NCBI GenBank assembly: GCA_963611795.1
Contig: CAVDSZ010000007.1
Location: 21,014 to 85,013, forward strand
Origin: Akkermansia muciniphila
GTDB lineage: Bacteria; Bacillota; Clostridia; Oscillospirales; CAG-272
Direction of reading: 5' to 3'
DNA: 64,000 nucleotides
Part shown: positions 11,972 to 50,307 of the stretch, piece by piece
How the letters are laid out: each line of letters opens with the position of its first letter
Numbering within the stretch: position 1 is the first letter of the stretch
The notes under the pieces: generated by a model
What the model was told of the DNA's origin: nothing
What the model saw: only the letters and a program-made list of their open reading frames with translations
Database searches by the model: none
Position numbers and translations under genes: made by a program

Positions 11972-12889
11972 TTATCCGATACTGGAAATATCGTAGGGCG
12001 TCGATTGATACACGAAATAGTTCAGCCAGTTGGTGAAGAGCAGGTTTGCCGCCGAGCGCCAGCGCACGAGCGGCTCCCGTGTCGGGTCGTCGTCAGGGAA
12101 GTAATGTTCCGGCACAGGAGTTCCGGGGTCGAGATGCCGGTCGCGCAGATATTCCTTTTTCAGCGTGTCGGGGTCGTATTCCGCGTGCCCGGTGAAGAAG
12201 ATCTGCCTGCCGTGGTTGGCGGTGACGGCGAAGACACCCGCCTCGGGCGAGGAGGCGAGAATCCGCAGTTCGGGTATTGCTTCGATGGCGGCGCGGTCAA
12301 CGCCGGTGTGGCGGGAATGCGGCACGTAAAATACGTCGTCGAACCCGCGGAAGAGAATGGAGCGCTTGTATTCCACCGTGTGCGGGTAAACGCCGGAGAG
12401 CTTCCGCTCGAGCGGCACCTTCTCGATGCCGTAGTGGTAGTATAGACCCGCCTGCGCGCCCCAGCAGATGTGGAGTGTGCTGTAAACGTGCGTCTTCGAC
12501 CACTCCATGATGTCTTTCAGCTCATCCCAGTATTCCACCTCGGAAAAAGGGAGACGCTCGACGGGCGCGCCCGTGATGACAAGACCGTCATAGTTGTTCT
12601 CGCGGATTTCGTCGAACGTGCGGTAGAAGGAGAGCAGATGCTCCTCGGGGGTATTTTTCGAGACGTGCGAGCGGGTGTGGATAAGCTCTGGCTCGACTTG
12701 CAGAGGCGTGTTGCCGAGCAGGCGGCAGAGCTGCGTCTCGGTGTCCACCTTGGTGGGCATCAGATTCAGAATCAGGATTTTTAAGGGGCGGATGTCCTGC
12801 GTGACGGCGCGCGTTTCGGTCATGACGAAAATGTTCTCGTCCTCGAGTGTGCGTACCGCCGGCAGTTCGTTCGGGATTTTGATTGGCAT
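11972..12889 (-). CDS. metA: Homoserine O-acyltransferase (MetA family)
   Basis: [23 protein letters not shown]...[15 protein letters not shown]...[11 protein letters not shown] is the canonical MetA sequence. Confidence 0.9.
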
Positions 12890-14225: not shown

Positions 14226-14494
14226 GTAAAAAAACAAAAAACACCCGTCTCTTTTGAGACGGATGACTCCGCGGTACCACTCAAATTCACGGTCGGAACC
14301 GTGCCCTCACAGGCGCTGACACGCCCCGGCGGAACTCTCGCGCGCCACACGGGAGACCCTACACGCGTCTGACGCGCTCGAACCTCCGGCTCAGGAGCCA
14401 TAGGCACATTCTCTCTGGGCGACCGACTCGCACCACACGTCGGCTCTCTTGGCACCCTCGGGGAAGACCCTCTCCCTCATCGCCTTGCTGATTT
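14226..14494 (-). promoter_or_regulatory. T-box leader (apparent Met specifier AUG) controlling metY-metA
   Basis: Minus-strand RNA shows a K-turn GAUGA, AGAGAG and GGUGCGA stem-I motifs, and a specifier bulge CCU-AUG-G (AUG at 14399-14401). The T-box motif AAUUUGAGUGGUACCGCGG is at 14269-14287. Terminator hairpin ccgtctc-aaaa-gagacgg plus U-run is at 14226-14264. Confidence 0.85.
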
Positions 14495-14500
14495 TGATTC

Positions 14501-14529
14501 ATTATACCCGATTTGTATGCCCGTGTCAA
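14501..14529 (-). promoter_or_regulatory. Consensus sigma-A promoter of the Met T-box operon
   Basis: Minus strand reads TTGACA (14524-14529), 17 nt spacer, TATAAT (14501-14506). Confidence 0.75.
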
Positions 14530-14591: not shown

Positions 14592-14622
14592 GAAAGCGGA
14601 AAAACACATTTCGGAGGTGCCT

Positions 14623-14937
14623 ATGAACGGAGAGAACACGACGCTGTCTGAGCAACTGGAACTGCTTTTTGGCGTGATGGCGACGCTGGATACGCCCGAA
14701 AAGGTGAAGCGCTTTCTCACCGATGTCTGCACGGATACGGAGATCGAATACATGGCACAGCGGGTGGAATCCGCGCGCCTGCTCCTCTCTGGCGCGACGT
14801 ATCAGCAGGTGAGCGGGGCGGTGAAGATCTCGTCGGCGACGCTCAGCCGCGTCAACCGGTGTATCAAGCACGGCTCGGGTGGATATGCCGCCCTGCTCGC
14901 GGAATACCTCGCGGGGGAGAGCGAAAAAAACTCTTGA
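14623..14937 (+). CDS. YerC/YecD-family (TrpR-like) small DNA-binding protein
   Basis: LELLFGVMATLDTPEKVKRFLTDVCTDTEIEYMAQRVESARLLLSGATYQQVSGAVKISSATLSRVNRC matches the YerC/YecD pattern. ATG 14623 lies 5 nt after GGAGG. Confidence 0.75.
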   Translation: MNGENTTLSEQLELLFGVMATLDTPEKVKRFLTDVCTDTEIEYMAQRVESARLLLSGATYQQVSGAVKISSATLSRVNRCIKHGSGGYAALLAEYLAGESEKNS

Positions 14938-14962
14938 CACGCCGCACCCAGTTGTGTATAAT
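14934..14962 (+). promoter_or_regulatory. Consensus promoter of the Leu T-box operon
   Basis: TTGACA (14934-14939, containing the yerC-like stop TGA at 14935-14937), 17 nt spacer, TATAAT (14957-14962). Confidence 0.75.
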
Positions 14963-14969
14963 GCAGTCA

Positions 14970-15246
14970 ATAAATGCGTGGATGGTATTATGTCGCCATC
15001 GTATGACCTACACAGAGAGCCGCCGGTCGGTGCAAGGCGGTGGGGTCGGATGACGACAGTCTCGTACCGGAGCAGGCGCCCCGAACCGCTGTCGCAGTAA
15101 GGGCACCCGGACGGATCCCGTCACAGATCCTCGGCTTGTCAGAGCCGTCAGAGCGGTCGCCCCCGGGGCGGCAATGTCGGGTGGTACCGTGGTTGCATCG
15201 CAATCATCCCGCAGAAGTCTCAGGACTTCTGCGGTTTTTGTTTTTT
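14970..15246 (+). promoter_or_regulatory. T-box leader, apparent Leu specifier CUC
   Basis: K-turn UGC-GUGGAU-GGUA pairs with UACC-GGA-GCA. AGAGAG and GGUGCAA motifs are present. The specifier bulge is AGU-CUC-G (CUC at 15061-15063). T-box motif GGGUGGUACCGUGG is at 15179-15192. Terminator stem ccgcagaagtc/gacttctgcgg plus U-run is at 15209-15246. Confidence 0.85.
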
Positions 15247-15279
15247 AACGTCAGTTTGTATGATCGGGAGGAGAGCAGA

Positions 15280-16674
15280 ATGAAACAGCAAAATATAAGA
15301 GTGGTGACGGTTTCGGACAGGACGCTCGCGGTGTGTGTCGACGGGCGCGAGGCGCCGTTAACGTTCCGTGAGCGGACACGGATTGCCGAGATTCTTTCGG
15401 GCGCCGGGGTGGACGCGATTGAACTCCCCGCCATGACCCGCCCGCGCGAGGAGACGGTCGTGAACCGCACGATTGCGCTCGCTGCCGGGGAGGTTGCCGT
15501 TAAGATTCCCGTGGCGTGCGAGGAGGGTGTTGCCGCGGCGTATGAGAGTGTCCGCGACGCCATTCACCCGGTTCTGCAGGTCGTCATGCCGACTTCTACG
15601 CTCGGTATGGAATACCGCTTACATAAAAAGGCACCCGCCGCCCGCGACCATGCCGTTTCGCTCTGCCGTGCGGCGCGGGCGATTGCCCCCGCCGTCGAGT
15701 TCGTGGCGGAGGACGCATCCCGCGCGGAGCCCGCTTTCCTTGCAGAGCTCATGCAGGCGGTCATCGCCGTCGGGGTCACTTCGTTTGTCCTTTGCGATGA
15801 CGCCGGGAACTGGCTCCCCGAGGAGGCGGCGGCGACCGTCCGGGCGCTTGTGACGCCCGCATGCCCGCTCCTGATCCGCCCCGCGATGTCGCTCGGGCTC
15901 GCGTCTGCGGTCGCCGCCGCGGCGCTCACGGCGGGTGCCGCCGGGGTCGTCACCGGCTTGGGCGGTGGTTCTTACACTGCGGCGGCACTCTCCGACCTGT
16001 TGACCGCCCGCGGCGAGACGCTGGGGCTATCCTCCCGCCTCGTCGCCACCGCCATTCACCGGGAGACGGAGGAGATTCACCGCACCGCCGGCGGCATCGG
16101 CGGGAAGCGGCAGGATCCTATCGCCGCACGCATCGCGCTCGGCGCGGACGCTACGCTCGGCGAGGTCTCCGACGCTTGTAACGCCCTCGGCTATGAACTC
16201 TCCGATGAGGATATTACCCATGTCGTGCGTGAGGTACAGCGTGTCGCAGAGAAGAAGGAGTCGATTGGCGCCCGAGAGCTGGAAGCCATTGTTGCCACCG
16301 CCGCCATGCAGGTGCCCTCGACCTACCACCTCGTGAGTTATCTCGTCAGTACAGGGAATGTGATTTCTCCTATGGCGGAAGTCACACTGAAAACAGGGGA
16401 GCGCACGCAGTCGGGGGTCTCCATGGGTGACGGTCCGATTGACGCGGCGTTCCGCGCGCTCGAGCAAATCATCGGGCACCACTATGAGCTCGACGATTTC
16501 GAGATTCAATCGGTGACGGAGGGGCGCGGCGCCGTCGGCTCCGCCCTCGTCAAGTTGCGTCACGACGGCAGACTGTACGCGGGGCAGGGCATCTCGACCG
16601 ATATCATCGGCGCGAGCGTGCGTGCCTACCTCAACGCTTTGAACAAGATTATCTATGAGGATATACGGGAATGA
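15280..16674 (+). CDS. 2-isopropylmalate synthase-like protein lacking catalytic residues but retaining the LeuA C-terminal (allosteric/dimerisation) domain
   Basis: HMGL-like TIM-barrel similarity, but DRTLAVCVD replaces DTTLRDGEQ and IRPAMSLGLA replaces the HxHxDxG metal motif. The C-terminus GVSMGDGPIDAAFRALEQII...SVTEGRGAVGSALVKLRHDGRLYAGQGISTDIIGASVRAYLNALNKI is a clear LeuA_dimer domain. ATG 15280 follows GGGAGGAG. The track start at 15040 reads through the T-box leader. Confidence 0.7.
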   Translation: MKQQNIRVVTVSDRTLAVCVDGREAPLTFRERTRIAEILSGAGVDAIELPAMTRPREETVVNRTIALAAGEVAVKIPVACEEGVAAAYESVRDAIHPVLQVVMPTSTLGMEYRLHKKAPAARDHAVSLCRAARAIAPAVEFVAEDASRAEPAFLAELMQAVIAVGVTSFVLCDDAGNWLPEEAAATVRALVTPACPLLIRPAMSLGLASAVAAAALTAGAAGVVTGLGGGSYTAAALSDLLTARGETLGLSSRLVATAIHRETEEIHRTAGGIGGKRQDPIAARIALGADATLGEVSDACNALGYELSDEDITHVVREVQRVAEKKESIGARELEAIVATAAMQVPSTYHLVSYLVSTGNVISPMAEVTLKTGERTQSGVSMGDGPIDAAFRALEQIIGHHYELDDFEIQSVTEGRGAVGSALVKLRHDGRLYAGQGISTDIIGASVRAYLNALNKIIYEDIRE

Positions 16675-19121
16675 AACTGGCTTTTTCAACGGCACTCGTG
16701 CCGTCTCCGACGTTTTTCGCACTCTGTCATACCGCCGCCGAGTACGGCTATGAGGGCATAGAACTGCATAATCTCGATGCCGTCGCCGCCCTCCCGGACG
16801 GTCCCTTCGGCACGGACGCCGCGGGCGCGCGGCGCAAGTTGCGGAACAGGCGTCTTTCAGTCTCGGCGCTGACCTGCCCGACCCCGGCGGACGGGACGGA
16901 AGTCTCGCGGCGAGAGATTGAGCGCTACTCTCTCGCGGCGTCCGATGCGGGCATTCCCGCCGTCATCGTCACGGTGGCGGGAGGTGCCGATCCCGCCCGC
17001 ATCGCCGCCTCTCTGCGCCCGGTCGCGGAACAGGGAGATGCCCGGTGTGTAAGGCTCCTCTTTGAGACGACCGGCGACCTCGCAAACACCGAGCGCCTGC
17101 TCGCGATTCTGCACACCTTTCGCGCCGTCGGCGTCGGCGCCGCGTGGAATATCCGCGCGACGTACTTTGAGGGCGGAGAGAGTGCCGAGACAACAATCAC
17201 CACCCTCGGCGCCTATATCGCCTATGTCCGTATCGGTGACCGCCGCGCGGGCGGGGACGTGTTGCTCGGGGAGGGGGAACTCCCTACCAGGGACTTTCTC
17301 GACGCGCTCCGGTCGCTGAACTATGACGGCTATTGCGCCTTTGATACGGCGGATATCGCCGACCCCGACCTTCTGCTCACGCACAGTGCCGCTTTCCTGC
17401 GTGCCCGCCTCGGCGTGGAGAAAAAGCGCCGCCTGTTGTCGAACCGGGCGGGGACCGGCACGTTCCCGTGGAAGAAGTATGAGGTCATTGATAAGACCTT
17501 TTCGCAGGTGCTTGACGAGATGGCGGAGACCTACCCCGACCAGTACGCCTTCCGTTACCCGACTCTCGACTATACCCGCACTTACCGCGCGTTCCGCGAG
17601 GATGTTGACCGTATCGCCGCGTCGCTGATTGCCCTAGGGGTGAAGCCGGGGTACCACGTCGCCGTCTGGGCGACGAACGTCCCGCAGTGGTTCCTGACCT
17701 TCTGGGCGGCGGTCAAGATTGGCGCCGTCCTCGTCACCGTGAATACCGCGTATAAGATTCAGGAGGCGGAATATTTGCTCCGCCAGTCGGATACCCATAC
17801 GCTCGTGATGATTGAAAACTGTAAGGATTCCGATTACCGCGGCATTATGGCGGAGCTCTGCCCGGAGTTGAAAGACAAAGCGCCGGAGGCGCCGCTCTAC
17901 GCGGAGCGCCTGCCGTTTCTGCGCCACATCGTGACCGTCGGCTTTTCGATGCCCGGCGCGCTTCCCTGGGAGCGTTTCTCCGACCTTGGCGCGACCGTCC
18001 CGCCCGAAGAAGTGCGGCGCCTCGCCGCCGGGGTGCGCCCCGACGACGTCGCGAATATGCAATACACCTCCGGCACGACCGGTTTCCCGAAGGGCGTCAT
18101 GCTGACGCATCGGAATATTGTCAATAACGGGAAGATTATTGGCGATCGTATGGACCTCTCCACCGCCGACCGCATGATGGTGCAGGTGCCGATGTTCCAT
18201 TGCTTCGGCATGGTGCTGACGATGACGTCCGTGATGACCCACGGCGGCACGCTCTGCCCGCTCCCGTACTTCTCGCCGAAGTCGTCACTCGCCTGTATCA
18301 CCGCGGAGCGCATCACGTGCTTCAACGGCGTGCCCACCATGTTCATCGCCATGTTCGCGCATGAAGATTTCGCGGGGACGGACTTTTCTCATGTCCGCAC
18401 CGGCATCATGGCGGGGGCGAACTGCCCGGCAGAGCTTATGCGCCGCGCCGCCCGTGAGATGCACATGACGGAGATTGTCAGCGTGTTCGGGCAGACGGAG
18501 GCATCGCCCGGCTGCACCATGGGTGAGGTCGGGGAGGATCTCGACCACCGCGTCGAGACGGTGGGCACCGCTTTCCCCGGGGTGGAGTGCAAAATCATCG
18601 ACCCCGAGACGGGGGAGGATTTGCCCGACGGGGAGAACGGCGAGTTTGTCGCCCGTGGCTTCAATATGATGAAAGGCTACTACAAAATGCCCCGCGCGAC
18701 GGCGGCGACCATTGACCGCGAGGGCTGGCTCCATACGGGCGATATCTGCTGCCGCACGCCGGAGGGGTACTTCCGCGTGACGGGGCGACTCAAGGACATG
18801 ATTATCCGCGGCGGGGAGAACCTCTACCCGCGCGAGATTGAGGAATTCTACCTCACGCACCCCAAGGTCAAGGACGCGCAGGTCGTCGGCGTGCCGGATG
18901 CGCGCTACGGCGAGGAAGCCTGTGCGTGGATTGTCCTGCATGACGGTGAGAGCGCGACGGAGGAGGAGATGCGCGACTTCGGGCGCGCACATATCGCGAG
19001 CCATAAGGTGCCGCGCTATTTCGTGTTCGTTCGTGCTTTTCCCATGAACGCAGCAGGGAAGATTCTGAAATACAAAATGCGCGAGACTATGATTGAGCGC
19101 CTCGGGCTCGCCGATTGCTGA
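16671..19121 (+). CDS. Fusion protein: xylose-isomerase-like TIM barrel (sugar-phosphate isomerase/epimerase, AP_endonuc_2 fold) + AMP-forming acyl-CoA ligase (FadD/YngI-like)
   Basis: The first ~250 aa show the TIM-barrel pattern (YGYEGIELHN...). The remainder carries the AMP-binding motifs MQYTSGTTGFPKGVMLTHRNI, GWLHTGD and PMNAAGKILK. Its ATG overlaps the upstream stop (ATGA at 16671-16674). Confidence 0.75.
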   Translation: MKLAFSTALVPSPTFFALCHTAAEYGYEGIELHNLDAVAALPDGPFGTDAAGARRKLRNRRLSVSALTCPTPADGTEVSRREIERYSLAASDAGIPAVIVTVAGGADPARIAASLRPVAEQGDARCVRLLFETTGDLANTERLLAILHTFRAVGVGAAWNIRATYFEGGESAETTITTLGAYIAYVRIGDRRAGGDVLLGEGELPTRDFLDALRSLNYDGYCAFDTADIADPDLLLTHSAAFLRARLGVEKKRRLLSNRAGTGTFPWKKYEVIDKTFSQVLDEMAETYPDQYAFRYPTLDYTRTYRAFREDVDRIAASLIALGVKPGYHVAVWATNVPQWFLTFWAAVKIGAVLVTVNTAYKIQEAEYLLRQSDTHTLVMIENCKDSDYRGIMAELCPELKDKAPEAPLYAERLPFLRHIVTVGFSMPGALPWERFSDLGATVPPEEVRRLAAGVRPDDVANMQYTSGTTGFPKGVMLTHRNIVNNGKIIGDRMDLSTADRMMVQVPMFHCFGMVLTMTSVMTHGGTLCPLPYFSPKSSLACITAERITCFNGVPTMFIAMFAHEDFAGTDFSHVRTGIMAGANCPAELMRRAAREMHMTEIVSVFGQTEASPGCTMGEVGEDLDHRVETVGTAFPGVECKIIDPETGEDLPDGENGEFVARGFNMMKGYYKMPRATAATIDREGWLHTGDICCRTPEGYFRVTGRLKDMIIRGGENLYPREIEEFYLTHPKVKDAQVVGVPDARYGEEACAWIVLHDGESATEEEMRDFGRAHIASHKVPRYFVFVRAFPMNAAGKILKYKMRETMIERLGLADC

Positions 19122-19167
19122 GGCAACCGGGAAAAGTGATTGTAAATACCAAATAAGGAAGTAATTC

Positions 19168-19977
19168 GTGAGAGAGATTATTGACGCGCATTGTCATATC
19201 TACCCCGACAAGATTGCCGAAAAGGCGGCGAGGGCAATCGGGGCGTTCTACCGTATCCCGATGCGTTACGACGGACGTATGGAGACCATGCTCCGGGAGG
19301 GCTCGGCGGCAGGAATCGGTCGCTATCTTGTTTTTTCCGTCGCCACCAAGCCGACGCAGACCGTTTCAATCAACGACTATATCGTCGAGACCGTTGCCCG
19401 CCATGAGGGGCAGATGCTGGGGCTCGGCACCATTCACCCGGATAACACCGACCCGGGCGCCCACGTCGAGTATATGCTCGCACACGGGCTCCGCGGAGTG
19501 AAGCTCCACCCGGATATTCAGGAGGCCGCGCTCGACGATCCGCGCTGTATGCGTATTTTCGAGGCGTGTGAGGGCAGGCTCCCCGTGCTCCTCCACACGG
19601 GCGACCGCCGCTTCGACTATTCCAACCCGAACAGGCTCTGCCCGGTGTTGGAGCGTTTCCCGCGCCTGACGGTCATCGGGGCGCATTTCGGCGGTTATTC
19701 CGTCTGGCAGAGCGCGACCGAGATGCTCGCCGGGCATGAGAACCTCTATGTCGATTGCTCGTCCTCTCTCTTTGCCATGTCTCCCGAGGAGGGCAGACGC
19801 ATTGTGCGTGCCTGGGGGGCGGATCGCGTGCTGTTCGGCACCGATTATCCCATGTGGAACCCGACGGAGGAGGTCGCCCGCGTGGAAGCGCTCGGACTCA
19901 CAGAGGAGGAGAACGAACAGGTGTTCCACAAAAATGCCGAAAAACTTTTCGGTTTTGAGAGTCATCTTGGGGCTTGA
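19168..19977 (+). CDS. Amidohydrolase_2-type (ACMSD/LigI-like) metal-dependent TIM-barrel hydrolase/decarboxylase family protein
   Basis: IIDAHCHIYPD (HxH metal motif), ...GVKLHPD..., ...LLHTGD..., ...FGTDYPMW. GTG start follows AAGGAAG. Confidence 0.7.
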   Translation: MREIIDAHCHIYPDKIAEKAARAIGAFYRIPMRYDGRMETMLREGSAAGIGRYLVFSVATKPTQTVSINDYIVETVARHEGQMLGLGTIHPDNTDPGAHVEYMLAHGLRGVKLHPDIQEAALDDPRCMRIFEACEGRLPVLLHTGDRRFDYSNPNRLCPVLERFPRLTVIGAHFGGYSVWQSATEMLAGHENLYVDCSSSLFAMSPEEGRRIVRAWGADRVLFGTDYPMWNPTEEVARVEALGLTEEENEQVFHKNAEKLFGFESHLGA

Positions 19978-20003
19978 CAGCCCCCTGGGCGGTATGCTAT
20001 ACT
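19974..20003 (+). promoter_or_regulatory. Promoter of the Ile T-box unit
   Basis: TTGACA (19974-19979, containing the upstream stop TGA at 19975-19977), 18 nt spacer, TATACT (19998-20003). Confidence 0.65.
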
Positions 20004-20009
20004 CTTGTC

Positions 20010-20279
20010 ATCCGAAAAGACTGTGACGAAGACGGAAGTATCGTTTAATCCCAGAGAGCCGGCGGGCGGTGTGAGCCGGTGTGAGGACGGTACGTGTTCC
20101 TATCCCTTCCGAGTCGGAGTCCCCAAAGCGTGTTTTGCCGGTAGGGGTTCCCGTGACGCCGCGTGAGTGCAAAGGGCTTGTTTGAGCCTGAGGGCACGGC
20201 TTTTGCCGTGAATTTGAGTGGTACCGCGGGTCTATCAGACTCGTCTCAAAGCATTTTTGAGATGGGTCTTTTTGTTTTC
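20010..20279 (+). promoter_or_regulatory. T-box leader, apparent Ile specifier AUC
   Basis: AGAGAG and GGUGUGA stem-I motifs are present. The specifier bulge is CCU-AUC-C (AUC at 20102-20104), aligned with the CCU-AUG-G bulge of the Met leader. T-box motif AAUUUGAGUGGUACCGCGG is at 20211-20229. Terminator plus U-run is at 20237-20279. The C after the codon is atypical, since a purine is expected there. Confidence 0.8.
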
Positions 20280-20306
20280 TCGGAAAGACCCGGGAAAGGA
20301 CAAAAC

Positions 20307-22568: not shown

Positions 22569-22576
22569 AAAAACAG

Positions 22577-22605
22577 TTGACAGCAGATACAAAGTGTGAT
22601 ATAGT
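22577..22605 (+). promoter_or_regulatory. Promoter of the Val T-box operon
   Basis: TTGACA (22577-22582), 17 nt spacer, TATAGT (22600-22605). It begins 9 nt after the upstream stop. Confidence 0.7.
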
Positions 22606-22611
22606 GTACTA

Positions 22612-22889
22612 AATCACCCAAAGGCGTTGAAGAAAAGGGCGCGTAGCAGGTTCCCTCTCAGAGACATGGCGGTTGGTGCGAGCCATGAGGGGCGGATACG
22701 TGTTTGTAGTTTCCGAGCCGGGAGGAAGAAAGGGATTTCCGAGTAGACCCTCCCCGTCATTGCCGCGTCAGAGCATAGAGTTTGCTAGAACTCGATAAGG
22801 GCACGACGGAACGTCGTGAATTTGAGTGGTACCGCGGGTCTTTTTCGGCTCGTCTCAAAGTCATACTTTGAGGCGGGCCTTTCTGTTTT
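22612..22889 (+). promoter_or_regulatory. T-box leader, apparent Val specifier GUA
   Basis: The lower helix pairs GGC...GAAA with UUUC-CGA-GCC. AGAGA and GGUGCGA motifs are present. The specifier bulge is UUU-GUA-G (GUA at 22706-22708). T-box motif AAUUUGAGUGGUACCGCGG is at 22819-22837. Terminator plus U-run is at 22847-22889. Confidence 0.85.
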
Positions 22890-22906
22890 CCCGCCGGGGA
22901 GGGATT

Positions 22907-25207
22907 ATGCAGACCAAAACCAAAACAGGACTGGAAGAGAAGATTCGCGAGATGGCGGGGCGTATCCGCGCCCTGCGGGAAATCGTCGGGTTTTCCACCG
23001 CCGAAATGGCGGAGAAGACGGACGTCGAGGAGGCGGAATACATCGCCTGCGAGGCGGGGCGGCAGGATTTGAACTTCGCGTTCCTTTATCGTTGTGCACA
23101 GGCGCTCGGCGTCGACGTCACGGATATTATCGAGGGGACGGGACCCCGCCTTTCCTCCTACACGGTCACGCGCCGCGGGGAGGGGCAGAAGATTGAACAG
23201 GCGCACGGCATGATTTATTACAATCTTGCCGCCGCTTTCAAGAACCGCATTGCCGAACCGCTGTTTGTCTGCTCGGTCTATTCCGAGGAGGCGCAGCACC
23301 GAGACATTGAACTCACGACACACATCGGGCAGGAGTGTGACATCATCGTCAGCGGCACGCTCAAAGTGCAGGTCGGTGAACACGTCGAGATTCTCCGCGC
23401 AGGCGACAGTATCTATTATGACAGCGCGACGCCCCACGGTATGATTGCGACCGAGGGGGCAGATTGTCTCTTCTATGCGATTGTCCTGAACCCGGCAGGA
23501 GAGCCGATTGCCAACCTGACGCACAGCGGTGTGCGCGAGTTTACCACCCTGCCGCCGAAGTTCCCCCCCAGCCGCAAGTGGGTGTGGGAGGACTATATCG
23601 ACGTCCGAGAGGGAGAGAACGGCGCGCTCGAGTCTCTCTCGTTTAAAAACACCGATACGTTCCATTTCGCCTTTGATATCGTGGACAGGATTGGACGGGA
23701 GCAGCCGGGGAAACTCGCGATGCTTCACCTCGACCGCGAGCACACGGAGCGCCGCTTCACGTTCGCCGACCTCTCCCGTGCTTCCAACCGCGCGGCGAAC
23801 TATTTCCGCTCTCTCGGCATCGGGCGCGGCGACCGCGTCCTGCTCCTGCTCAAGCGGCATTACCAGTTTTGGATTGCCCTGCTCGGGCTGATGAAGATCG
23901 GCGCCGTCTCCATTCCGGCGCCTTGCCAGCTCCGCGCGCATGATATCTCCTACCGCCTCGGCGCGGCGGGTATCTCCGCCGTCGTTGCTACGGCGGATGG
24001 CGATATTGCCACCGAGGTGGACGCCTCCACGGCGGAGGCGGGCGTGCCGCTGACCCGTATCCTCGTCGACGGCAAGCGCGAAGGCTGGCGCGACTTCGAC
24101 GGGGAGTACCCGCTCTTTACCGGGAAGTTCGAGCGCCCGGCGGACGCCCCGACGGGAGACAGTCTGATGCTCATGTATTTCACCTCCGGCACGTCGGGAA
24201 ACCCGAAGATTGCCGCGCATGATTACCGTTATCCCCTCGGGCATTTCCATACCGCGAAGTATTGGCACTGTGTGAACCCGGACGGTTTGCACCTCACCGT
24301 CGCCGACACCGGCTGGGCAAAAGCGGCGTGGGGGAAGATTTTCGGACAATGGCTATGTGAAGCACCCATTTTCGTCTATGATTTCGACAGATTCGACGCG
24401 GCGGATATCCTGCCGATGTTTGCCAAATATCATATCACCACCTTCTGTGCCCCGCCGACAATCCTCCGCATGATGGTCAAGGAGGATATCTCTCGCTACG
24501 ACCTTTCGTCCGTCGAGCATATGACGACGGCGGGTGAGGCACTCAATCCCGAGGTGTTTCGTCTCTTTGAGGCGGCGACCGGACTACAGATTATGGAGGG
24601 CTTCGGGCAGAGCGAGACGACCTGCGTGATTGCGAACCTCGTCGGCACCCGCGCCCGCCTCGGCTCGATGGGGAAGCCGGTACCGCTCTACCGCGTTGCA
24701 TTGCTCGACGGGGAGGGCAGACCCGTACCGGACGGCGAGGTCGGAGAAATCTGTATCGACGTCTCGGGGGGCGCGCCCTGCGGGCTGTTCCGCGGCTACT
24801 ACCGTGACGACGAAAAAACGGTGGAGTGCTGGCACGACGGTTACTACCATACGGGCGATACCGCATGGCGTGACGAGGACGGCTATTACTGGTATGTCGG
24901 GCGCACCGACGACCTCATCAAGTCCTCCGGCTACCGCATCGGACCCTTTGAGATCGAGAACGTCCTCATGGAACTGCCGTACATTCTCGAATGCGGCGTT
25001 TCCGCCGCGCCCGACCCGGTGCGCGGACAGGTGGTGAAAGCCAGCATCGTCCTCACCCGCGGCACCGCCCCGACGGAGGAACTCAAAAAAGAAATCCAGA
25101 ATTACGTCAAGGAACGTACCGCCCCCTATAAATACCCCCGTATCGTCGTGTTCCGGGAGGAACTCCCCAAGACGACGAGCGGTAAGATTCGGAGAAATCA
25201 ACTGTAA
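22907..25207 (+). CDS. Fusion protein: XRE-family HTH + cupin domain + AMP-forming acyl-CoA synthetase, paralogue 2
   Basis: Same three-module architecture as 20307-22568, and by eye roughly two-thirds identical to it. ATG 22907 follows GGGGAGGG. The track start at 22826 reads through the T-box terminator. Confidence 0.8.
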   Translation: MQTKTKTGLEEKIREMAGRIRALREIVGFSTAEMAEKTDVEEAEYIACEAGRQDLNFAFLYRCAQALGVDVTDIIEGTGPRLSSYTVTRRGEGQKIEQAHGMIYYNLAAAFKNRIAEPLFVCSVYSEEAQHRDIELTTHIGQECDIIVSGTLKVQVGEHVEILRAGDSIYYDSATPHGMIATEGADCLFYAIVLNPAGEPIANLTHSGVREFTTLPPKFPPSRKWVWEDYIDVREGENGALESLSFKNTDTFHFAFDIVDRIGREQPGKLAMLHLDREHTERRFTFADLSRASNRAANYFRSLGIGRGDRVLLLLKRHYQFWIALLGLMKIGAVSIPAPCQLRAHDISYRLGAAGISAVVATADGDIATEVDASTAEAGVPLTRILVDGKREGWRDFDGEYPLFTGKFERPADAPTGDSLMLMYFTSGTSGNPKIAAHDYRYPLGHFHTAKYWHCVNPDGLHLTVADTGWAKAAWGKIFGQWLCEAPIFVYDFDRFDAADILPMFAKYHITTFCAPPTILRMMVKEDISRYDLSSVEHMTTAGEALNPEVFRLFEAATGLQIMEGFGQSETTCVIANLVGTRARLGSMGKPVPLYRVALLDGEGRPVPDGEVGEICIDVSGGAPCGLFRGYYRDDEKTVECWHDGYYHTGDTAWRDEDGYYWYVGRTDDLIKSSGYRIGPFEIENVLMELPYILECGVSAAPDPVRGQVVKASIVLTRGTAPTEELKKEIQNYVKERTAPYKYPRIVVFREELPKTTSGKIRRNQL

Positions 25208-25218
25208 GGAGAGATACC

Positions 25219-26301
25219 ATGTTAGAAATCCGTTTGACAAGAACCGCAACCCCGAAAGAAAAACCGCAGGACGAAAGCGCGCTCGGTTTCGGGAAGATTT
25301 TCACCGACCATATGTTTCTCGCCGATTATACGGAGGGGGAGGGGTGGCATGACGCCCGCATCGTCCCCTACGGTCCACTTTCGCTTTCTCCCGCCGCATC
25401 GGTGCTGCATTACGGCACCGAGATTTTCGAGGGCATGAAAGCGTATCGCACGGCATCGGGCGAAATCCGTCTGTTCCGCCCCATGGAGAATATCCGCCGC
25501 ATGAATCATAGTGCGGAGCGCTTGTGCCTGCCGGAGGTGGACGAGGCGTTCATGCTCCGCGCGCTGGATACGCTGGTGAATCTCGAACGCGACTGGGTGC
25601 CGAACAACGTTGGCACGTCTCTCTATATTCGCCCGTTCATGTTCGGCGCAGACCCTCACCTCGGCGTTCACGCCGTCCATGCGGCGACCCTCTGCATCAT
25701 CTGCTCGCCCGTCGGCGCCTATTACGCCGAGGGCATTAACCCGGTGAAGATTGCGATTGAGCACGAGGACGTCCGCGCCGTGCGCGGTGGTACGGGCTAT
25801 GCGAAGTGCGGCGGGAACTATGCCGCCAGCCTGCGTGCCGGTAAGCGTGCGGAGGAAAAGGGCTATACACAGGTGCTTTGGCTCGACGGCGTCGAGCGTA
25901 AGTACATCGAGGAAGTCGGCTCCATGAACGTCATGTTCAAGATTGCGGGGAAGATTGTCACCCCTGCGCTCACCGGCTCCGTCCTCCCCGGTATCACGCG
26001 CAAGTCCTGTATCGAATTGCTCCGTTCGTGGGGTTACGAGGTCGAAGAGCGTCTGCTCTCGGTCGGGGAACTGATTGGCGCCGCAGAGGACAGGACGCTC
26101 GAGGAGGCGTGGGGCACCGGCACGGCGGCGGTCGTCTCTCCGATCGGCACCCTTGCCTACGAGGGGAAGGAGCATATGGTCGGCGGCGGCGGCATCGGCG
26201 CCGTGACGCAGAAACTCTACGATACGCTGACGGGGATTCAGTGGGGTACGCTCCCGGACACCTTCGGCTGGTGCCACACGGTGGGGAAACCATGCGACTG
26301 A
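25219..26301 (+). CDS. ilvE: Branched-chain amino acid aminotransferase
   Basis: GFGKIFTDHMF...YGTEIFEGMKAYR...GGTGYAKCGGNYAAS... is the class-IV BCAT signature. AAGGAGAG lies before the ATG. Confidence 0.9.
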   Translation: MLEIRLTRTATPKEKPQDESALGFGKIFTDHMFLADYTEGEGWHDARIVPYGPLSLSPAASVLHYGTEIFEGMKAYRTASGEIRLFRPMENIRRMNHSAERLCLPEVDEAFMLRALDTLVNLERDWVPNNVGTSLYIRPFMFGADPHLGVHAVHAATLCIICSPVGAYYAEGINPVKIAIEHEDVRAVRGGTGYAKCGGNYAASLRAGKRAEEKGYTQVLWLDGVERKYIEEVGSMNVMFKIAGKIVTPALTGSVLPGITRKSCIELLRSWGYEVEERLLSVGELIGAAEDRTLEEAWGTGTAAVVSPIGTLAYEGKEHMVGGGGIGAVTQKLYDTLTGIQWGTLPDTFGWCHTVGKPCD

Positions 26302-26960
26302 CCGAGTTTCCGCACCGGCGGGTCACACTCTTCGCCGGGCATTACGGGAGCGGGAAGACTAATCTCGCCGTCAACTATGCGCTCGCCCTCCGCGAGAGGG
26401 GGGAAAGCGTGACGGTCGCCGATATGGATATTGTCAACCCGTATTTCCGTACCAAGGACAGCGCCGAGGTGCTCAGTGCGGCGGGGATACGCCTGATTTC
26501 CCCTGCGTTTGCGAACAGTAACGTCGATTTGCCGGCGCTCCCGGCGGCGCTCTATCTGCCAATCGTCGCCCGCGATACGCTCGCGATTCTGGACATCGGC
26601 GGTGATGACCGCGGGGCGTATGCCCTCGGGCGGTATGCACCGGATATTCTCACAGAGGGCAATTTTGAAATGATTTTCGTCGTGAACTTTTGCCGCCCGC
26701 TGACAGAGACGACGGAGGACGCGCTCGGGGTCATGCGGGAAATTGAGACGGCGGGCGGGATTCCGTTTACCGCGATTGTCAACAATTCCAACCTCGGCAC
26801 CGAGACGACCCCTGAAACGGTGCGTGCGACGCAAGCGCGCGCCGGAGAACTCTCGCGCCTCTCGGGGCTCCCGCTCCTGTTTACCTCCGCCGAGGCGCGC
26901 ATTGCCGACGCGGTACCTGAACCGCTCTTCGCGCTCAATCTGCAAAAGAAGTATATTTGA
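26292..26960 (+). CDS. Small SIMIBI-class (MinD/ParA/CooC-like) P-loop NTPase of unknown role
   Basis: Walker A: FAGHYGSGKTNLAVN. Walker B-like: LAILDIGGDD. 222 aa counted from ATG 26292, which overlaps the ilvE 3' end by 10 nt. The track start at 26028 lies inside ilvE in another frame. Confidence 0.6.
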   Translation: MRLTEFPHRRVTLFAGHYGSGKTNLAVNYALALRERGESVTVADMDIVNPYFRTKDSAEVLSAAGIRLISPAFANSNVDLPALPAALYLPIVARDTLAILDIGGDDRGAYALGRYAPDILTEGNFEMIFVVNFCRPLTETTEDALGVMREIETAGGIPFTAIVNNSNLGTETTPETVRATQARAGELSRLSGLPLLFTSAEARIADAVPEPLFALNLQKKYI

Positions 26961-26974
26961 TAAAGGAGACTGCC

Positions 26975-27181
26975 ATGGCGAAAGTGACTTTTGCGACGGA
27001 CCTTTGTAAAGGCTGTGGACTGTGTGTCGCCGCCTGCCCGCGGGGCATCATCGCGCTCTCGCGTGAAAAAATCAATCAGAAAGGACATTCTCCCGCCGAG
27101 GTGACGGACGGGTCGAAGTGCATCGGTTGTGCTTTCTGCGCGACGATGTGCCCCGACTGCGTAATCACGGTGGAGAAGTGA
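26975..27181 (+). CDS. 2-oxoacid:ferredoxin oxidoreductase delta subunit (2x[4Fe-4S] ferredoxin-type)
   Basis: Two CxxCxxCxxxCP clusters (CKGCGLCVAACP and CIGCAFCATMCP). ATG 26975 follows AAGGAG. Confidence 0.85.
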   Translation: MAKVTFATDLCKGCGLCVAACPRGIIALSREKINQKGHSPAEVTDGSKCIGCAFCATMCPDCVITVEK

Positions 27182-27190
27182 GGTGATACA

Positions 27191-28258
27191 ATGGCGGAAA
27201 AAGTATTGATGAAGGGGAATGAGGCAATCGCCGAGGCGGCAATCCGCGCCGGGTGCCGTCACTATTTCGGATACCCAATCACCCCCCAGACCGAGGTCGC
27301 CGCGTATATGGCGAAGCGTATGCCGAAGATCGGCGGCGTGTTCCTGCAAGCGGAGAGCGAGATCTCTGCGATTAACATGGTGTACGGCGTCGCCGGGACA
27401 GGGAAGCGCGTGATGACCTCTTCCTCCAGCCCCGGGATTTCGCTGAAACAGGAGGGAATCTCCTATATTGCCGGGGCAGACCTGCCCGCGCTCATTGTCA
27501 ACGTCCAGCGCGGCGGACCGGGGCTCGGCGGGATTCAGCCGTCGCAGTCGGATTACTTCCAGGCGACCAAAGGCGGTGGTCACGGCGACTACCATCTGAT
27601 TGTTCTCGCGCCTGCCTCCGTGCAGGAAATGGCGGACATGACGGTGCACGCCTTCAATCTTGCCGATACATACAGAATGCCCGTCATGCTCCTCGCAGAC
27701 GGTACCATGGGGCAGATGATGGAGCCCGTGACGCTCCCGGAGGCGGTCGAGCCGCGCACCGCAGAAACATCGTGGACGGTGACGGGGACGGAGGGCAAAC
27801 GTCCGCATCATATCATCAATTCGCTGTACCTGAAGCCGGAGATTCTCGAGAAAACCAATATCGAGCGCTTTGCGCGTTACCGCACGGTCGAGGAGCGCGA
27901 GCCGCTGTTCGAAACCTATATGATGGAGGACGCGGAGTATTGCGTCGTCGCGTTCGGTATCGCCGCGCGCGTGTCCAAGAACGCCGTCAAGGCGGCGAGA
28001 GACATGGGTATCAAGGTCGGACTCATTCGTCCGATTACCCTCTGGCCGTTCCCGAAGGCGGCGCTTGCGGCGTCGGCAGAGCACGTGCGGGCGTTCCTCT
28101 CGGTGGAACTCTCCATGGGGCAGATGATTGAGGACGTGGAACTCGCAATCCGCTGCCGCCGCCCGGTGTCGCTCTGCTCGCGTACCGGCGGGATGATTCC
28201 CACGCCCGAGGAAGTTTTGACGGCAATTCGAAACATGATGGGAGGAGACAAGGCATGA
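27191..28258 (+). CDS. 2-oxoacid:ferredoxin oxidoreductase alpha subunit (VorB/KorA-type)
   Basis: MKGNEAIAEAAIRAGCRHYFGYPITPQTE...ESEISAINMVYGVAGTG... is the canonical OFOR alpha N-terminus. Confidence 0.85.
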   Translation: MAEKVLMKGNEAIAEAAIRAGCRHYFGYPITPQTEVAAYMAKRMPKIGGVFLQAESEISAINMVYGVAGTGKRVMTSSSSPGISLKQEGISYIAGADLPALIVNVQRGGPGLGGIQPSQSDYFQATKGGGHGDYHLIVLAPASVQEMADMTVHAFNLADTYRMPVMLLADGTMGQMMEPVTLPEAVEPRTAETSWTVTGTEGKRPHHIINSLYLKPEILEKTNIERFARYRTVEEREPLFETYMMEDAEYCVVAFGIAARVSKNAVKAARDMGIKVGLIRPITLWPFPKAALAASAEHVRAFLSVELSMGQMIEDVELAIRCRRPVSLCSRTGGMIPTPEEVLTAIRNMMGGDKA

Positions 28259-29004
28259 CTGTATTTGAAAAACCGAAATCCCTGACGGACGCGCCGCTGC
28301 ATTATTGCCCCGGCTGTACGCACGGGATTATACACCGCCTTGTCGCACAGGCGATTGACACGCTCGGGATTGAGGGGAAGACGATTGGCGTCGCCCCCGT
28401 CGGCTGCGCCGTCATGGCGTACGACTATTTTGCCTGTGACATGGTGGAGGCGGCGCACGGCAGAGCCCCTGCGGTCGCGACCGGCATTAAGCGCGCACTT
28501 CCCGAAAATATCGTATTTACTTATCAGGGAGACGGCGACCTTGCCTCCATCGGCATGGCGGAGACGGTACACGCCGCAACTCGGAACGAGAATATCACCG
28601 TGATCTTTGTCAATAACGCGATTTACGGCATGACGGGCGGGCAAATGGCGCCGACGTCGCTCCCCGGACAGGTCACGCAGACCTCCCCCTATGGTCGTGA
28701 CGTCGCGACGGTCGGCTATCCGATCCGTGTTTCGGAGATGCTCGCCGCCCTCGACGGACCTGCCTATATTCGGCGCGTCGCCGTCAACAACGTGAAGCAC
28801 GTGAAAGAGGCGGAGAAAGCGATTTTGAAAGCCTTCCGAAACCAGGTGGAGGGGCGCGGATTTTCGCTTATTGAAGTGATTTCTTCCTGCCCGACCAACT
28901 GGGGCATGACCCCCGAGGCGGCGCTTCAGTGGGTAGAGGATAAAATGATTCCGTATTATCCGCTCGGCGTGTATAAGGACAAGACAGAGGAGGGTACACG
29001 ATGA
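28255..29004 (+). CDS. 2-oxoacid:ferredoxin oxidoreductase beta subunit (TPP-binding)
   Basis: YCPGCTHGI...GDGDLASIGMAE...NNAIYGMTGGQ TPP motif. Start overlaps the alpha-subunit stop. Confidence 0.85.
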   Translation: MTVFEKPKSLTDAPLHYCPGCTHGIIHRLVAQAIDTLGIEGKTIGVAPVGCAVMAYDYFACDMVEAAHGRAPAVATGIKRALPENIVFTYQGDGDLASIGMAETVHAATRNENITVIFVNNAIYGMTGGQMAPTSLPGQVTQTSPYGRDVATVGYPIRVSEMLAALDGPAYIRRVAVNNVKHVKEAEKAILKAFRNQVEGRGFSLIEVISSCPTNWGMTPEAALQWVEDKMIPYYPLGVYKDKTEEGTR

Positions 29005-29528
29005 CGTATCACATTCTGATTGCGGGCTTCGGCGGGCAAGGGGTGCTTTTTGCCGGTAAGTTCCTCACATACCTCGGTATGATGGCGGGGAAAGAGGTAA
29101 GCTGGCTGCCGTCCTACGGACCCGAGATGCGCGGCGGCACCGCGAATTGTAGCGTGATTCTCTCCGACGACCCCGTCGGTTCGCCGATTGTGTCGCACCC
29201 CGACGTCCTCGTTGTGATGAATCTGCCCTCGCTCGATAAATACGAGGGGGAGGCGGTGCCGGGGGCAAAACTCTTCGTCGACAGTACGCTGATTGCGCGG
29301 AAAGTTGCGCGCACCGACGTCACGCCCTACTATCTGCCCGCGACCGAGATGGCGCGCGCGGCGGGGATTCCGACGCTTGCCAACATGATGCTGGTCGGGA
29401 AGGTGTTGCGCGAGGTCGGGATTCCTTTCGATCATGTGGAAGCGGCGCTCACGAAAGTTGTCTCCGCCCGCCACGCGGATTTGTATGACGCGAACTTCCG
29501 CGCCCTCCGCACGGGCTACGAGAGTTAA
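29001..29528 (+). CDS. 2-oxoacid:ferredoxin oxidoreductase gamma subunit
   Basis: ILIAGFGGQGVLFAGKFL...SYGPEMRGGTANCSV. Start overlaps the beta-subunit stop. Confidence 0.85.
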   Translation: MTYHILIAGFGGQGVLFAGKFLTYLGMMAGKEVSWLPSYGPEMRGGTANCSVILSDDPVGSPIVSHPDVLVVMNLPSLDKYEGEAVPGAKLFVDSTLIARKVARTDVTPYYLPATEMARAAGIPTLANMMLVGKVLREVGIPFDHVEAALTKVVSARHADLYDANFRALRTGYES

Positions 29529-29593
29529 AATCTCCTCATAGAGCGCCCTGTTAACAAAACCGATTTCTATCGTATCAAAACCGATTCCACAAT

Positions 29594-29635
29594 ACAAAGA
29601 GGAGCCGTTAACACGGCTCCTCTTTGTGCTTTTTA
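29594..29635 (+). terminator. Terminator ending the Val T-box operon
   Basis: 14-bp perfect stem acaaagaggagccg / cggctcctctttgt (29594-29627), followed by gcTTTTT. Confidence 0.8.
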
Positions 29636-50295: not shown

Positions 50296-50307
50296 GGAGG
50301 CGGAACG

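Follow-up and report, generated by a model that had tools for sequence, protein, structure and literature searches.

Three adjacent T-box leaders of different specificity and their acyl-CoA ligase genes: a probable route by which branched short-chain fatty acids become branched-chain amino acids

We showed that three adjacent T-box leaders, with Leu, Ile and Val specifiers, precede genes of AMP-forming acyl-CoA ligases in the analysed window (the whole stretch of DNA, 64,000 nucleotides), and that the last of these leaders also precedes the genes of IlvE and a predicted VorB-type oxidoreductase. The locus probably encodes a starvation-induced route that converts branched short-chain fatty acids into branched-chain amino acids, a route whose substrates and direction we infer. 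As predicted from its sequence, the region is composed of three independent transcription units, each equipped with its own promoter and attenuating T-box leader. The regulatory elements are given below; across 11.5-30.5 kb, the best four sigma-70-like sites turned out to be the promoters of the four leaders (12/12, 12/12, 11/12 and 11/12 consensus positions).

14489-14252, minus strand: fourth T-box, Met-type, specifier AUG
14934..14962, + strand: Leu-unit promoter, TTGACA-17-TATAAT, 12/12 consensus positions
14970..15245, + strand: T-box leader of the Leu unit, CUC specifier 15061-15063, T-box sequence at about 15176-15200
15209-15234, + strand: terminator hairpin of the Leu leader, plus U-run
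19974..20003, + strand: Ile-unit promoter, 11/12 matches, TG extension
20014..20280, + strand: T-box leader of the Ile unit, AUC specifier 20102-20104
20237-20269, + strand: terminator of the Ile leader, plus U-run
22577..22605, + strand: Val-unit promoter, 11/12 matches, TG extension
22618..22890, + strand: T-box leader of the Val unit, GUA specifier 22706-22708
22847-22879, + strand: terminator of the Val leader, plus U-run
29593..29628, + strand: intrinsic terminator at the end of the Val unit, 16-bp stem and T-run

The initial annotation had described the three + strand leaders and their specifiers, and both were borne out by a search with the model RF00230 at a permissive threshold, which matched all three leaders at full length (model 1-219; E-values from 1e-17 to 5e-19) and with the same specifiers: Leu at 14970-15214 (84.8 bits, E 1.5e-17), Ile at 20014-20251 (86.0 bits, E 7.8e-18) and Val at 22618-22860 (90.5 bits, E 5.2e-19). 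The Met-type T-box on the minus strand had been overlooked. The curated gathering score of RF00230 is 93 bits, and an Rfam scan of the window at this threshold reported no T-box; the Leu, Ile and Val leaders of the window lie 2.5-8 bits under it, and orthologous leaders found before the same genes in lower-GC relatives exceed it (94-117 bits).

The specifier reading frame was defined by a constant register, in which the codon is followed by 1 nt, a 4-bp helix, 1 nt and GAG, together with the covariance-model alignment, and the two agree on the codon position in all three + strand leaders. When 146 stem-I elements from 80 related loci were read in this register, the 4-bp helix beneath the specifier codon was paired in 144 of them. 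Across 150 sequences of stem I, 94.1% of cells were paired (versus 35-45% in slid controls) and compensatory changes were present in 20/21 pairs, which represents strong covariation. Stem I, with its K-turn, specifier loop and distal AGAGA and GGUGNRA motifs, was aligned to the RF00230 consensus, as was, in all leaders, the conserved T-box sequence (GGUGGUACCGCG) that forms the antiterminator. Every leader terminates, as had been noted earlier for those on the + strand, in a hairpin (10-15 bp) followed by a U-run. In the comparison with the antiterminator, the terminators had stems of 11-15 bp, and their 5' arm overlapped the antiterminator on its 3' side. T-boxes switch genes on in response to uncharged cognate tRNA, i.e. 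starvation for the respective amino acid. The leaders of the window are followed by these genes:

15280..16674, + strand: LeuA-like putative pseudo-enzyme (HMGL-like barrel and LeuA_dimer), first gene after the Leu leader
16671..19121, + strand: xylose-isomerase-like TIM barrel (residues 1-265) fused to a FadD/PRK12583-type AMP-forming acyl-CoA ligase (TIM-ligase)
19168..19977, + strand: Amidohydro_2 protein of a metal-dependent hydrolase/decarboxylase family (Pfam E 2.5e-38)
20307..22568, + strand: ligI, HTH-like and cupin domains plus AMP-forming short-chain acyl-CoA ligase, after the Ile leader
22907..25207, + strand: ligV, same domains as ligI, after the Val leader
25219..26301, + strand: IlvE, class IV branched-chain amino acid aminotransferase (NCBIfam NF009897)
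26292..26960, + strand: SIMIBI-class P-loop NTPase adjoining the OFOR genes (Walker A GHYGSGKT)
26975..27181, + strand: OFOR delta subunit, 2x[4Fe-4S] ferredoxin-like (Fer4_7 dicluster domain)
27191..28258, + strand: OFOR alpha subunit, VorB type (NCBIfam PRK07119)
28255..29004, + strand: OFOR beta subunit, TPP-binding (TPP_enzyme_C)
29001..29528, + strand: OFOR gamma subunit (PF01558 POR, E 6.8e-35)

This arrangement recurs in at least 80 loci of gut and rumen genome collections. The comparison set consisted of 80 related loci of gut/rumen Clostridia from a one-genome-per-species collection, many of them cut by contig ends, and their usual order is Ile T-box, ligI, Val T-box, ligV, P-loop NTPase, VorDABG, IlvE, Leu T-box, LeuA-like gene, TIM-ligase and Amidohydro_2 gene. 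Within this set, Val leaders preceded ligV-type genes in 75/75 cases and Ile leaders preceded ligI-type genes in 46/46, while all 21 Leu leaders (21/21) stood before the LeuA-like gene, followed by the third ligase. The codon-to-paralog pairing is a one-to-one rule, without exception across 142 leaders outside the window, and 120 ligases form exactly two clusters, which coincide with the specifier class (73 Val, 47 Ile). The earlier proposal that each leader is followed by its own ligase, dedicated to one amino acid, is thereby upheld as a conserved rule for Val and Ile, but in the Leu unit the LeuA-like gene, apparently a dead LeuA, intervenes before the ligase gene starting at 16671, and this ligase belongs to another family.

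Downstream of the Ile and Val leaders, the genes (ligases, ilvE, P-loop NTPase and delta/alpha/beta/gamma OFOR genes) were as annotated, and the assignment of ilvE and of a VOR-type oxidoreductase agrees with the model scores: IlvE passes the equivalog cut-offs (NF009897, 477.2 versus 307 bits; TIGR01123, 388.3 versus 250) and the alpha subunit passes that of the VorB subfamily model PRK07119 (559.8 bits, cut-off 399). The VOR subunit set (delta, alpha, beta and gamma) is complete; the small delta subunit corresponds to a 68-aa gene called in a near-identical contig. We classify the enzyme as a predicted VorB-type four-subunit 2-oxoacid:ferredoxin oxidoreductase whose substrate is named via the NCBIfam subfamily model; among solved structures, an unassigned 2-keto acid OFOR and a 2-oxoglutarate enzyme come closest, neither of them branched-chain-assigned. 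The P-loop NTPase (AF2 model pLDDT 87; Foldseek matches to SRP GTPases and ATPase-type HypB) is kept in 67/80 related loci, and IlvE was detected in 52/80, many of which are contig-truncated. The caveat, raised previously, that ilvE and the OFOR genes lie behind the Val leader only is true of the window and of every related locus, and starvation for Ile or Leu only would therefore not induce VOR and IlvE.

The ligase domain of ligV and ligI carries PF00501 and PF13193, and ligV (residues 248-765, about 520 residues) matches MacsMa (PDB 3ETC) with 619 bits (E 7e-185). Among NCBIfam models, ligV and ligI match MbcS best (422 and 426 bits); with a cut-off of 850 they were rejected as MbcS equivalogs and are relatives only. 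MacsMa prefers 2-methylbutyrate and has an acyl pocket lined by Trp259 (PMC10455477), and MbcS activates 2-methylbutyrate and isobutyrate, and isovalerate poorly (PMC10026030). The sole strict difference between ligV and ligI within this domain is Ala471 of ligV (Gly in ligI), equivalent to Gly255 of MacsMa, which adjoins Trp254, lies four residues ahead of Trp259 and is thus placed beside the acyl pocket; ligI has the same Gly at this position as the 2-methylbutyrate-preferring MacsMa. Judging indirectly from this residue, from these relatives and from the pairing with Ile and Val specifiers, ligI is a candidate 2-methylbutyrate-CoA ligase and ligV a candidate isobutyrate-CoA ligase. Alpha-branched short acids are substrates of MacsMa and MbcS alike, and both enzymes have ligase domains homologous to those of ligV and ligI, but the latter are two specialised paralogs under different T-boxes and possess an additional N-terminal HTH-like and cupin module of ~245 residues.

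This module, overlooked in the initial annotation, holds 9/10 positions strictly separating ligV from ligI. In a Foldseek search, the ligV module (AF2 model pLDDT 71.5, moderate confidence) gave the best matches to HppE, HEPD, MPnS and the Vibrio HTH_3 regulator 1Y9Q (E 1e-13 to 1e-9), with which, as modelled, it would share an HTH-like alpha domain joined to a cupin; unlike in these proteins, it is fused to a ligase and its HTH part is strongly acidic, which argues against DNA binding. The invariant H139, E143 and H177 are compatible with a putative cupin metal site.

The ligases may instead mainly scavenge branched short acids as acyl-CoA primers for branched membrane fatty acids, the T-boxes then serving as a proxy for a shortage of amino-acid-derived primers. 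Allison's work reportedly found that rumen ruminococci channel isovalerate into leucine and branched lipids alike, and such a dual fate would suit this reading. So would the relationship of ligV and ligI to MbcS, whose role in Staphylococcus aureus is to provide lipid synthesis with primers (PMC10026030). We nevertheless consider it rather unlikely, given that IlvE and VOR, neither of which is required for primer formation, share the Val-gated operon, that the cluster has no fab genes, and that T-boxes report tRNA charging, i.e. the demand of protein synthesis. Primer supply and amino acid synthesis are mutually compatible uses of the ligases.

The Leu unit differs from the plain leader and ligase described previously, since a LeuA-like gene comes first, the ligase carries a fused TIM barrel and an Amidohydro_2 gene follows. 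The LeuA-like gene, whose stop overlaps the start of the TIM-ligase gene, was rejected as a 2-isopropylmalate synthase LeuA: its Pfam and NCBIfam scores are far under the LeuA cut-offs, an alignment with LeuA of N. meningitidis (3RMJ) shows other residues in place of RDGEQ and HxH, and the catalytic LRDGEQ and HxH motifs, sought in the protein and 20 orthologs, are absent in all 21. Its only well-kept part is the LeuA_dimer regulatory domain (E 4e-31), and the protein is, by these sequence features, a predicted catalytically dead LeuA. The TIM-ligase is most likely the isovalerate-activating enzyme, a candidate assignment for which homology gives no substrate. The Amidohydro_2 protein has only distant PDB matches; its HxH, H, H and D residues are invariant in 15 orthologs and the enzyme is apparently active. 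The three Leu-unit genes have roles which a simple scheme leading from isovalerate to Leu does not explain.

A second alternative, namely that the T-boxes and the pairing are real and the ligases use other branched-chain-related substrates (2-hydroxy or 2-oxo acids, N-acyl compounds), with the Leu unit representing a different leucine route that does not start from isovalerate, draws on the features of this unit: the ligase shows just 24% identity to ligV, feruloyl- and fatty-acyl-CoA synthetases are its best relatives among solved structures, and the TIM barrel and the Amidohydro_2 gene are conserved together with it. This appears decidedly unlikely, because the similarity of ligV and ligI to MacsMa is very high, and because carboxylation of isovalerate is the known physiological route to Leu (PMC7356843). 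Moreover, MbcS-type enzymes are poor on isovalerate, which would explain why Leu recruits a ligase of another family.

In the preferred reading, synthesis of branched-chain amino acids, the leaders would sense uncharged tRNA-Leu (CUC), tRNA-Ile (AUC) and tRNA-Val (GUA), and a shortage of one of these amino acids would allow RNA polymerase to pass its leader into the gene of the dedicated AMP-forming ligase. Isobutyrate would be activated by ligV, 2-methylbutyrate by ligI and isovalerate, most likely, by the TIM-ligase. The VorB-type oxidoreductase would then reductively carboxylate the acyl-CoA, using reduced ferredoxin and CO2, and IlvE would convert the 2-oxo acid thus formed into Val, Ile or Leu by transamination; we infer that one VOR and one IlvE serve all three acids. 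These conversions (isovalerate to Leu, 2-methylbutyrate to Ile, isobutyrate to Val) are established for rumen bacteria (work of Allison and co-workers, cited in PMC7356843).

A catabolic direction, with IlvE and VOR breaking branched-chain amino acids down to acyl-CoAs and the ligases as unrelated passengers, is very improbable: such enzymes are indeed oxidative in many anaerobes, but this direction would make no sense when T-box induction occurs under starvation for the same amino acid, AMP-forming ligases cost two ATP equivalents and are not an energy-conservation device, and the codon-to-ligase pairing outside the window is perfect.

A Leu T-box controls the ilv-leu operon of Bacillus subtilis. 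The leuA T-box of Geobacter has a tRNA-Leu(GAG) specifier (PMC2700814). The leaders studied here share with those of such ilv/leu operons the RNA family, the antiterminator logic based on uncharged tRNA and CUC for Leu, but the gated genes are those of acyl-CoA ligases, OFOR and IlvE instead of the de novo pathway, and three specifiers are distributed over three adjacent units, each with its own ligase paralog. Methanogens possess an anabolic 2-oxoisovalerate:ferredoxin oxidoreductase (VOR). The chemistry proposed here (acyl-CoA, CO2 and reduced ferredoxin giving a 2-oxo acid, followed by transamination) would be the same as in these organisms and in the isoacid carboxylation of the rumen; what differs is that the genes of a bacterial delta/alpha/beta/gamma OFOR share a tRNA-Val-controlled operon with those of IlvE, a ligase and a SIMIBI NTPase.

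More tentatively, and with considerable doubt, we suggest a feedback of two layers with an end-product sensor for each ligase, in which the T-box reads tRNA charging and a protein module, responding to the free amino acid or acid, might throttle the ligase, i.e. the committed step. The sensor for Val and Ile would be the fused acidic HppE-like HTH and metal-cupin module, and that for Leu the translationally coupled LeuA-derived pseudo-enzyme, which would retain only the leucine-binding regulatory domain. The SIMIBI NTPase could be devoted to assembling or activating the anabolic VOR.

To conclude, our literature search found no description of acyl-CoA ligases, OFOR or IlvE gated by three adjacent T-boxes of different specifiers. 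To our knowledge, all evidence for the bacterial pathway of isoacid carboxylation comes from labelling studies carried out in the 1960s and 70s, and its genes have not been assigned so far. Since the arrangement is this recurrent, in gut and rumen bacteria alike, it provides candidate genes for the pathway which that labelling work revealed.

At the Rfam gathering threshold no T-box was detected across the window, the sole match being a tRNA. When the T-box model RF00230 (gathering score of 93) was searched over 14-30 kb at a permissive threshold, four full-length matches were obtained:

14970-15214, plus strand: Leu T-box leader (84.8 bits, E 1.5e-17)
20014-20251, plus strand: Ile T-box leader (86.0 bits, E 7.8e-18)
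22618-22860, plus strand: Val T-box leader (90.5 bits, E 5.2e-19)
14489-14252, minus strand: Met T-box leader (72.6 bits, E 2.2e-14; the leader spans 14252-14529)

The model thus recovered the Leu, Ile and Val leaders described in the initial annotation, which had left the minus-strand Met leader unmentioned. Along the 3' strand of stem I, the register is common to all four leaders: a single base separates the codon from a 4-bp helix, and another separates this helix from the GAG of the K-turn. The RF00230 covariance alignment and this GAG-anchored register identified the specifiers CUC (15061-15063; Leu), AUC (20102-20104; Ile) and GUA (22706-22708; Val), the same triplets that had been proposed at these positions, together with AUG in the Met leader. 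The top four promoter-like sites between 11.5 and 30.5 kb are the promoters of the four leaders (12/12, 12/12, 11/12 and 11/12 consensus matches). At the end of each leader stands a long hairpin, whose 5' arm overlaps the antiterminator, and then a U-run. The T-box bulge reads UGGU in every case, which fits the A73 discriminator of tRNA-Leu, tRNA-Ile, tRNA-Val and tRNA-Met. As members of a known RNA family the T-boxes are unremarkable, and their sub-threshold scores look like an effect of the G+C content of the genome (roughly 60%), since orthologous Leu, Ile and Val leaders in relatives of lower G+C content (loci L012, L033, L047, L058, L061 and L063) reach 94-117 bits, i.e. values above the gathering score. 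Annotation at the gathering threshold would therefore overlook all four T-boxes of this genome.

The Met leader, divergent from the Leu unit and equipped with its own 12/12 promoter and terminator, gates the genes of a Cys/Met PLP enzyme (O-acetylhomoserine sulfhydrylase-like; 12895-14184) and a homoserine O-acyltransferase (11972-12889). Between the Met and Leu leaders lies a small gene of the TrpR/YerC family (14617-14937), which is also present in L081, a contig near-identical to the window. The sole tRNA gene in the window encodes tRNA-Tyr (GTA; 34483-34567), and no genes for tRNA-Leu, tRNA-Ile or tRNA-Val were found near it or elsewhere in the window.

The three branched-chain amino acid (BCAA) units contain the following features:

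15280-16674: LeuA-like gene, the first gene of the Leu unit
16671-19121: TIM-ligase gene of the Leu unit, encoding a xylose-isomerase-like TIM barrel fused to an AMP-forming ligase of the FadD/PRK12583 type
19168-19977: Amidohydro_2 gene of the Leu unit
20307-22568: ligI of the Ile unit, encoding an AMP-forming ligase preceded by HTH_XRE-like and cupin domains
22907-25207: ligV of the Val unit, with the same architecture as ligI
26292-26960: gene of a P-loop protein (222 aa) in the Val unit
29593-29628: strong terminator closing the Val unit

The ligV and ligI proteins are 62% identical. The Val unit also encodes IlvE, which scores above its equivalog cut-off, and the delta, alpha, beta and gamma subunits of a 2-oxoacid:ferredoxin oxidoreductase (VOR), whose alpha subunit scores above the VorB subfamily cut-off. 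The same gene calls were found in L081, identified through its 98%-identical ligV protein; a search for an exact copy of the ligV sequence gave no match. No ilv or leu genes of de novo synthesis occur elsewhere in the 64-kb window. The earlier view that each leader precedes a ligase gene was borne out, but it proved incomplete for the Leu unit, which comprises LeuA-like and Amidohydro_2 genes as well as that of the TIM-ligase. The restriction of VOR and IlvE to the Val leader, noted previously, holds both here and in every relative among the 80 related loci described below.

Downstream of the operon, a minus-strand ORF (29693-31981) probably encodes a heavy-metal P-type ATPase (HMA, E1-E2 ATPase), as judged from the gene calls of L081; the plus-strand ORFs overlapping it gave no Pfam matches. 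The window further contains two giant ORFs of 3186 and 1688 aa (35368-44928 and 56028-61094) and a cluster encoding a MoxR AAA ATPase, DUF58 and BatA/VWA proteins (46335-53190). The G+C content, about 0.61, falls to about 0.54 beyond 32 kb.

The comparative analysis used an alignment of ligV-type proteins as the query and a collection with one genome per species. From more than 594 relatives (best match 73% identical), 80 loci were taken, nearly all of them from MAGs of rumen, hindgut or human gut origin, labelled as Oscillospiraceae, Acutalibacteraceae, Ruminococcaceae, Ruminococcus, Eubacteriales or Clostridia. A stem-I covariance model, based on the Val stem I and its structure as derived from Rfam, identified 156 stem-I elements in these loci and the window. 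Among 150 elements, 94.1% of cells were paired, compared with 35-45% when the partner column was slid, and 20 of the 21 stem-I pairs showed changes on both sides. Specifiers were read in the GAG-anchored register for the 146 elements with a canonical GAG.

Specifier classes (window included) and the genes directly downstream of them in the other loci
Val: 76 elements (GUA 74, GUC 2); ligV-type gene in 75/75
Ile: 47 elements (AUC); ligI-type gene in 46/46
Leu: 22 elements (CUC 21, CUG 1); LeuA-like gene in 21/21
Met: 1 element (AUG); window alone

Three elements with a variant K-turn were assigned by eye to Val (one) and Leu (two), one further element is cut by a contig end, and two extra Leu leaders (CUC and CUG), missed by the stem-I model, were found with Rfam. 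Apparent Leu(CUA), Pro, Ser and Gln specifiers, obtained from fixed alignment columns and affecting even the window's own Ile leader, were an insert-column artefact, and no exception persisted once the reading was anchored on the K-turn GAG; Leu T-boxes seemingly located ahead of ligI-type genes were a register artefact that disappeared in the same way. The 120 full-length ligases encoded behind Val or Ile leaders form two clusters that match the specifier class perfectly, the nearest neighbour of each ligase being a member of its own class. The commonest order is Ile leader, ligI, Val leader, ligV, P-loop gene, VorD-A-B-G, IlvE, Leu leader, LeuA-like gene, TIM-ligase and Amidohydro_2, with the Leu unit inverted upstream in some loci.

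The best-supported reading of the locus is that of a starvation-induced salvage route to BCAAs. Uncharged tRNA would open the cognate leader, the cognate ligase would generate a branched acyl-CoA, VOR would carry out its reductive carboxylation, and IlvE would aminate the product. The main rival explanation is that the ligases, like MbcS, supply primers for branched-chain lipids. This is compatible with the ligases themselves, but leaves unexplained the co-transcription of IlvE and VOR in the Val-gated operon; the two uses may, however, coexist. A catabolic direction of the operons contradicts the logic of T-box control.

MbcS is the best NCBIfam match of both ligV and ligI. The ligase domain of ligV matches PDB 3ETC with an E value of 7e-185 over about 520 residues. 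The latter structure is that of MacsMa of Methanosarcina acetivorans, which prefers 2-methylbutyrate and has an acyl pocket lined by Trp259 (PMC10455477), while MbcS activates 2-methylbutyrate and isobutyrate, and isovalerate barely (PMC10026030). Ten positions are paralog-specific (at least 90% conserved inside each paralog group and different between the groups), and just one of them, Ala471 in ligV versus Gly in ligI, is located in the ligase domain. It corresponds to Gly255 of MacsMa, flanked by Trp254 and Lys256 and placed four residues before Trp259 (the chain numbering of 3ETC is offset by 23 from the native one, as checked on Gly459-Tyr460-Lys461, chain 482-484). The glycine is common to ligI and the 2-methylbutyrate enzyme MacsMa, and the bulkier alanine of ligV is what might be expected of a pocket trimmed by one carbon. 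The preference of MacsMa and MbcS for alpha-branched acids, with isovalerate a poor substrate of MbcS, provides a rationale for the other ligase family in the Leu unit.

The remaining nine paralog-specific positions fall within residues 56-119 of the N-terminal module (encoded by 20307-21040 in ligI and 22907-23641 in ligV); with relaxed criteria, 12 of 65 positions differ in residues 56-120, compared with 7 of 521 in the ligase domain. An AF2 model of the module (moderate pLDDT of 71.5) gave the Vibrio HTH_3-cupin protein 1Y9Q and the HppE/HEPD/MPnS enzymes as best matches. The HTH-like domain of the latter enzymes is not known to bind DNA. The helix-turn-helix part is acidic in every one of the 120 orthologs, its net charge averaging -6.5 and never exceeding -2, which, together with the likeness to the non-DNA-binding HppE architecture, led us to reject a BirA-like ligase-repressor and makes a ligand-sensing or scaffolding role most likely. 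The residues H139, E143 and H177 are invariant and might serve as the metal site of the cupin.

In the Leu unit, the LeuA-like protein aligns to LeuA of N. meningitidis, but in this and every other of the 21 compared sequences different residues occupy the motifs for substrate and metal binding (…LRDGEQ…, HxH), so that a true LeuA is ruled out. The better-kept part is the C-terminal LeuA_dimer regulatory domain (77% versus 58% column identity), which we take to be of the leucine-binding type. The stop codon of the gene overlaps the start of the TIM-ligase gene (ATGA), and by these sequence features the protein is a conserved pseudo-enzyme, predicted to be translationally coupled to the TIM-ligase. 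The TIM barrel of the latter (16671-17465) is poorly kept (58%, compared with 83% in the ligase domain) and lacks an invariant His, and the nearest solved relatives of the ligase domain are feruloyl- and fatty-acyl-CoA synthetases. The Amidohydro_2 protein retains a complete HxH/H/H/D metal site; the relatives with solved structures are all distant, namely LigW/ACMSD-type decarboxylases and one uncharacterised protein. On the basis of the Leu specifier, the known physiology and exclusion, isovalerate is the candidate substrate of the TIM-ligase.

In 67 of the 80 loci (gene-presence counts being limited by contig ends), the gene of the P-loop protein, annotated as hypothetical in all sources, separates ligV or IlvE from VorD. 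The confidently predicted fold of the protein (pLDDT 87) places it in the SIMIBI class of NTPases and likens it to SRP GTPases and ATPase-type HypB, and a role in the assembly or activation of the neighbouring oxidoreductase is plausible. A NifH-like ATP-driven electron donor for VOR was ruled out, as the fold is generic SIMIBI and the orthologs share no invariant cysteine.

Since the 1960s, isobutyrate, 2-methylbutyrate and isovalerate have been recognised as acids that rumen and gut anaerobes require or use for the synthesis of valine, isoleucine and leucine, respectively. To our knowledge, no bacterial genes have been assigned to this conversion. In the literature searched we found neither a gene assignment for bacterial isoacid carboxylation nor any account of acyl-CoA ligases or 2-oxoacid:ferredoxin oxidoreductases under T-box control, although an earlier mention is possible; acyl-CoA ligases, ferredoxin enzymes and ilvE are all unmentioned in the T-box survey of Wels (2008). 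What appears to be new is thus the regulon, T-boxes being well known.

To conclude, the specifier codons serve as built-in labels that pair each ligase paralog with an amino acid in all 80 loci examined. The old physiology is thereby converted into a short, testable gene list (the two ligase paralogs, which differ at a residue that may set specificity, the third ligase complex, and a single VOR and IlvE), and a sixty-year-old pathway becomes accessible to genetics. T-box regulons, which include synthetases, de novo pathways and transporters, are widened to salvage by acyl-CoA ligases and a ferredoxin oxidoreductase. These results also bear on predictions of BCAA auxotrophy that search genomes for ilv/leu genes alone, and on the action of “isoacid” feed supplements upon fibre-degrading Clostridia.
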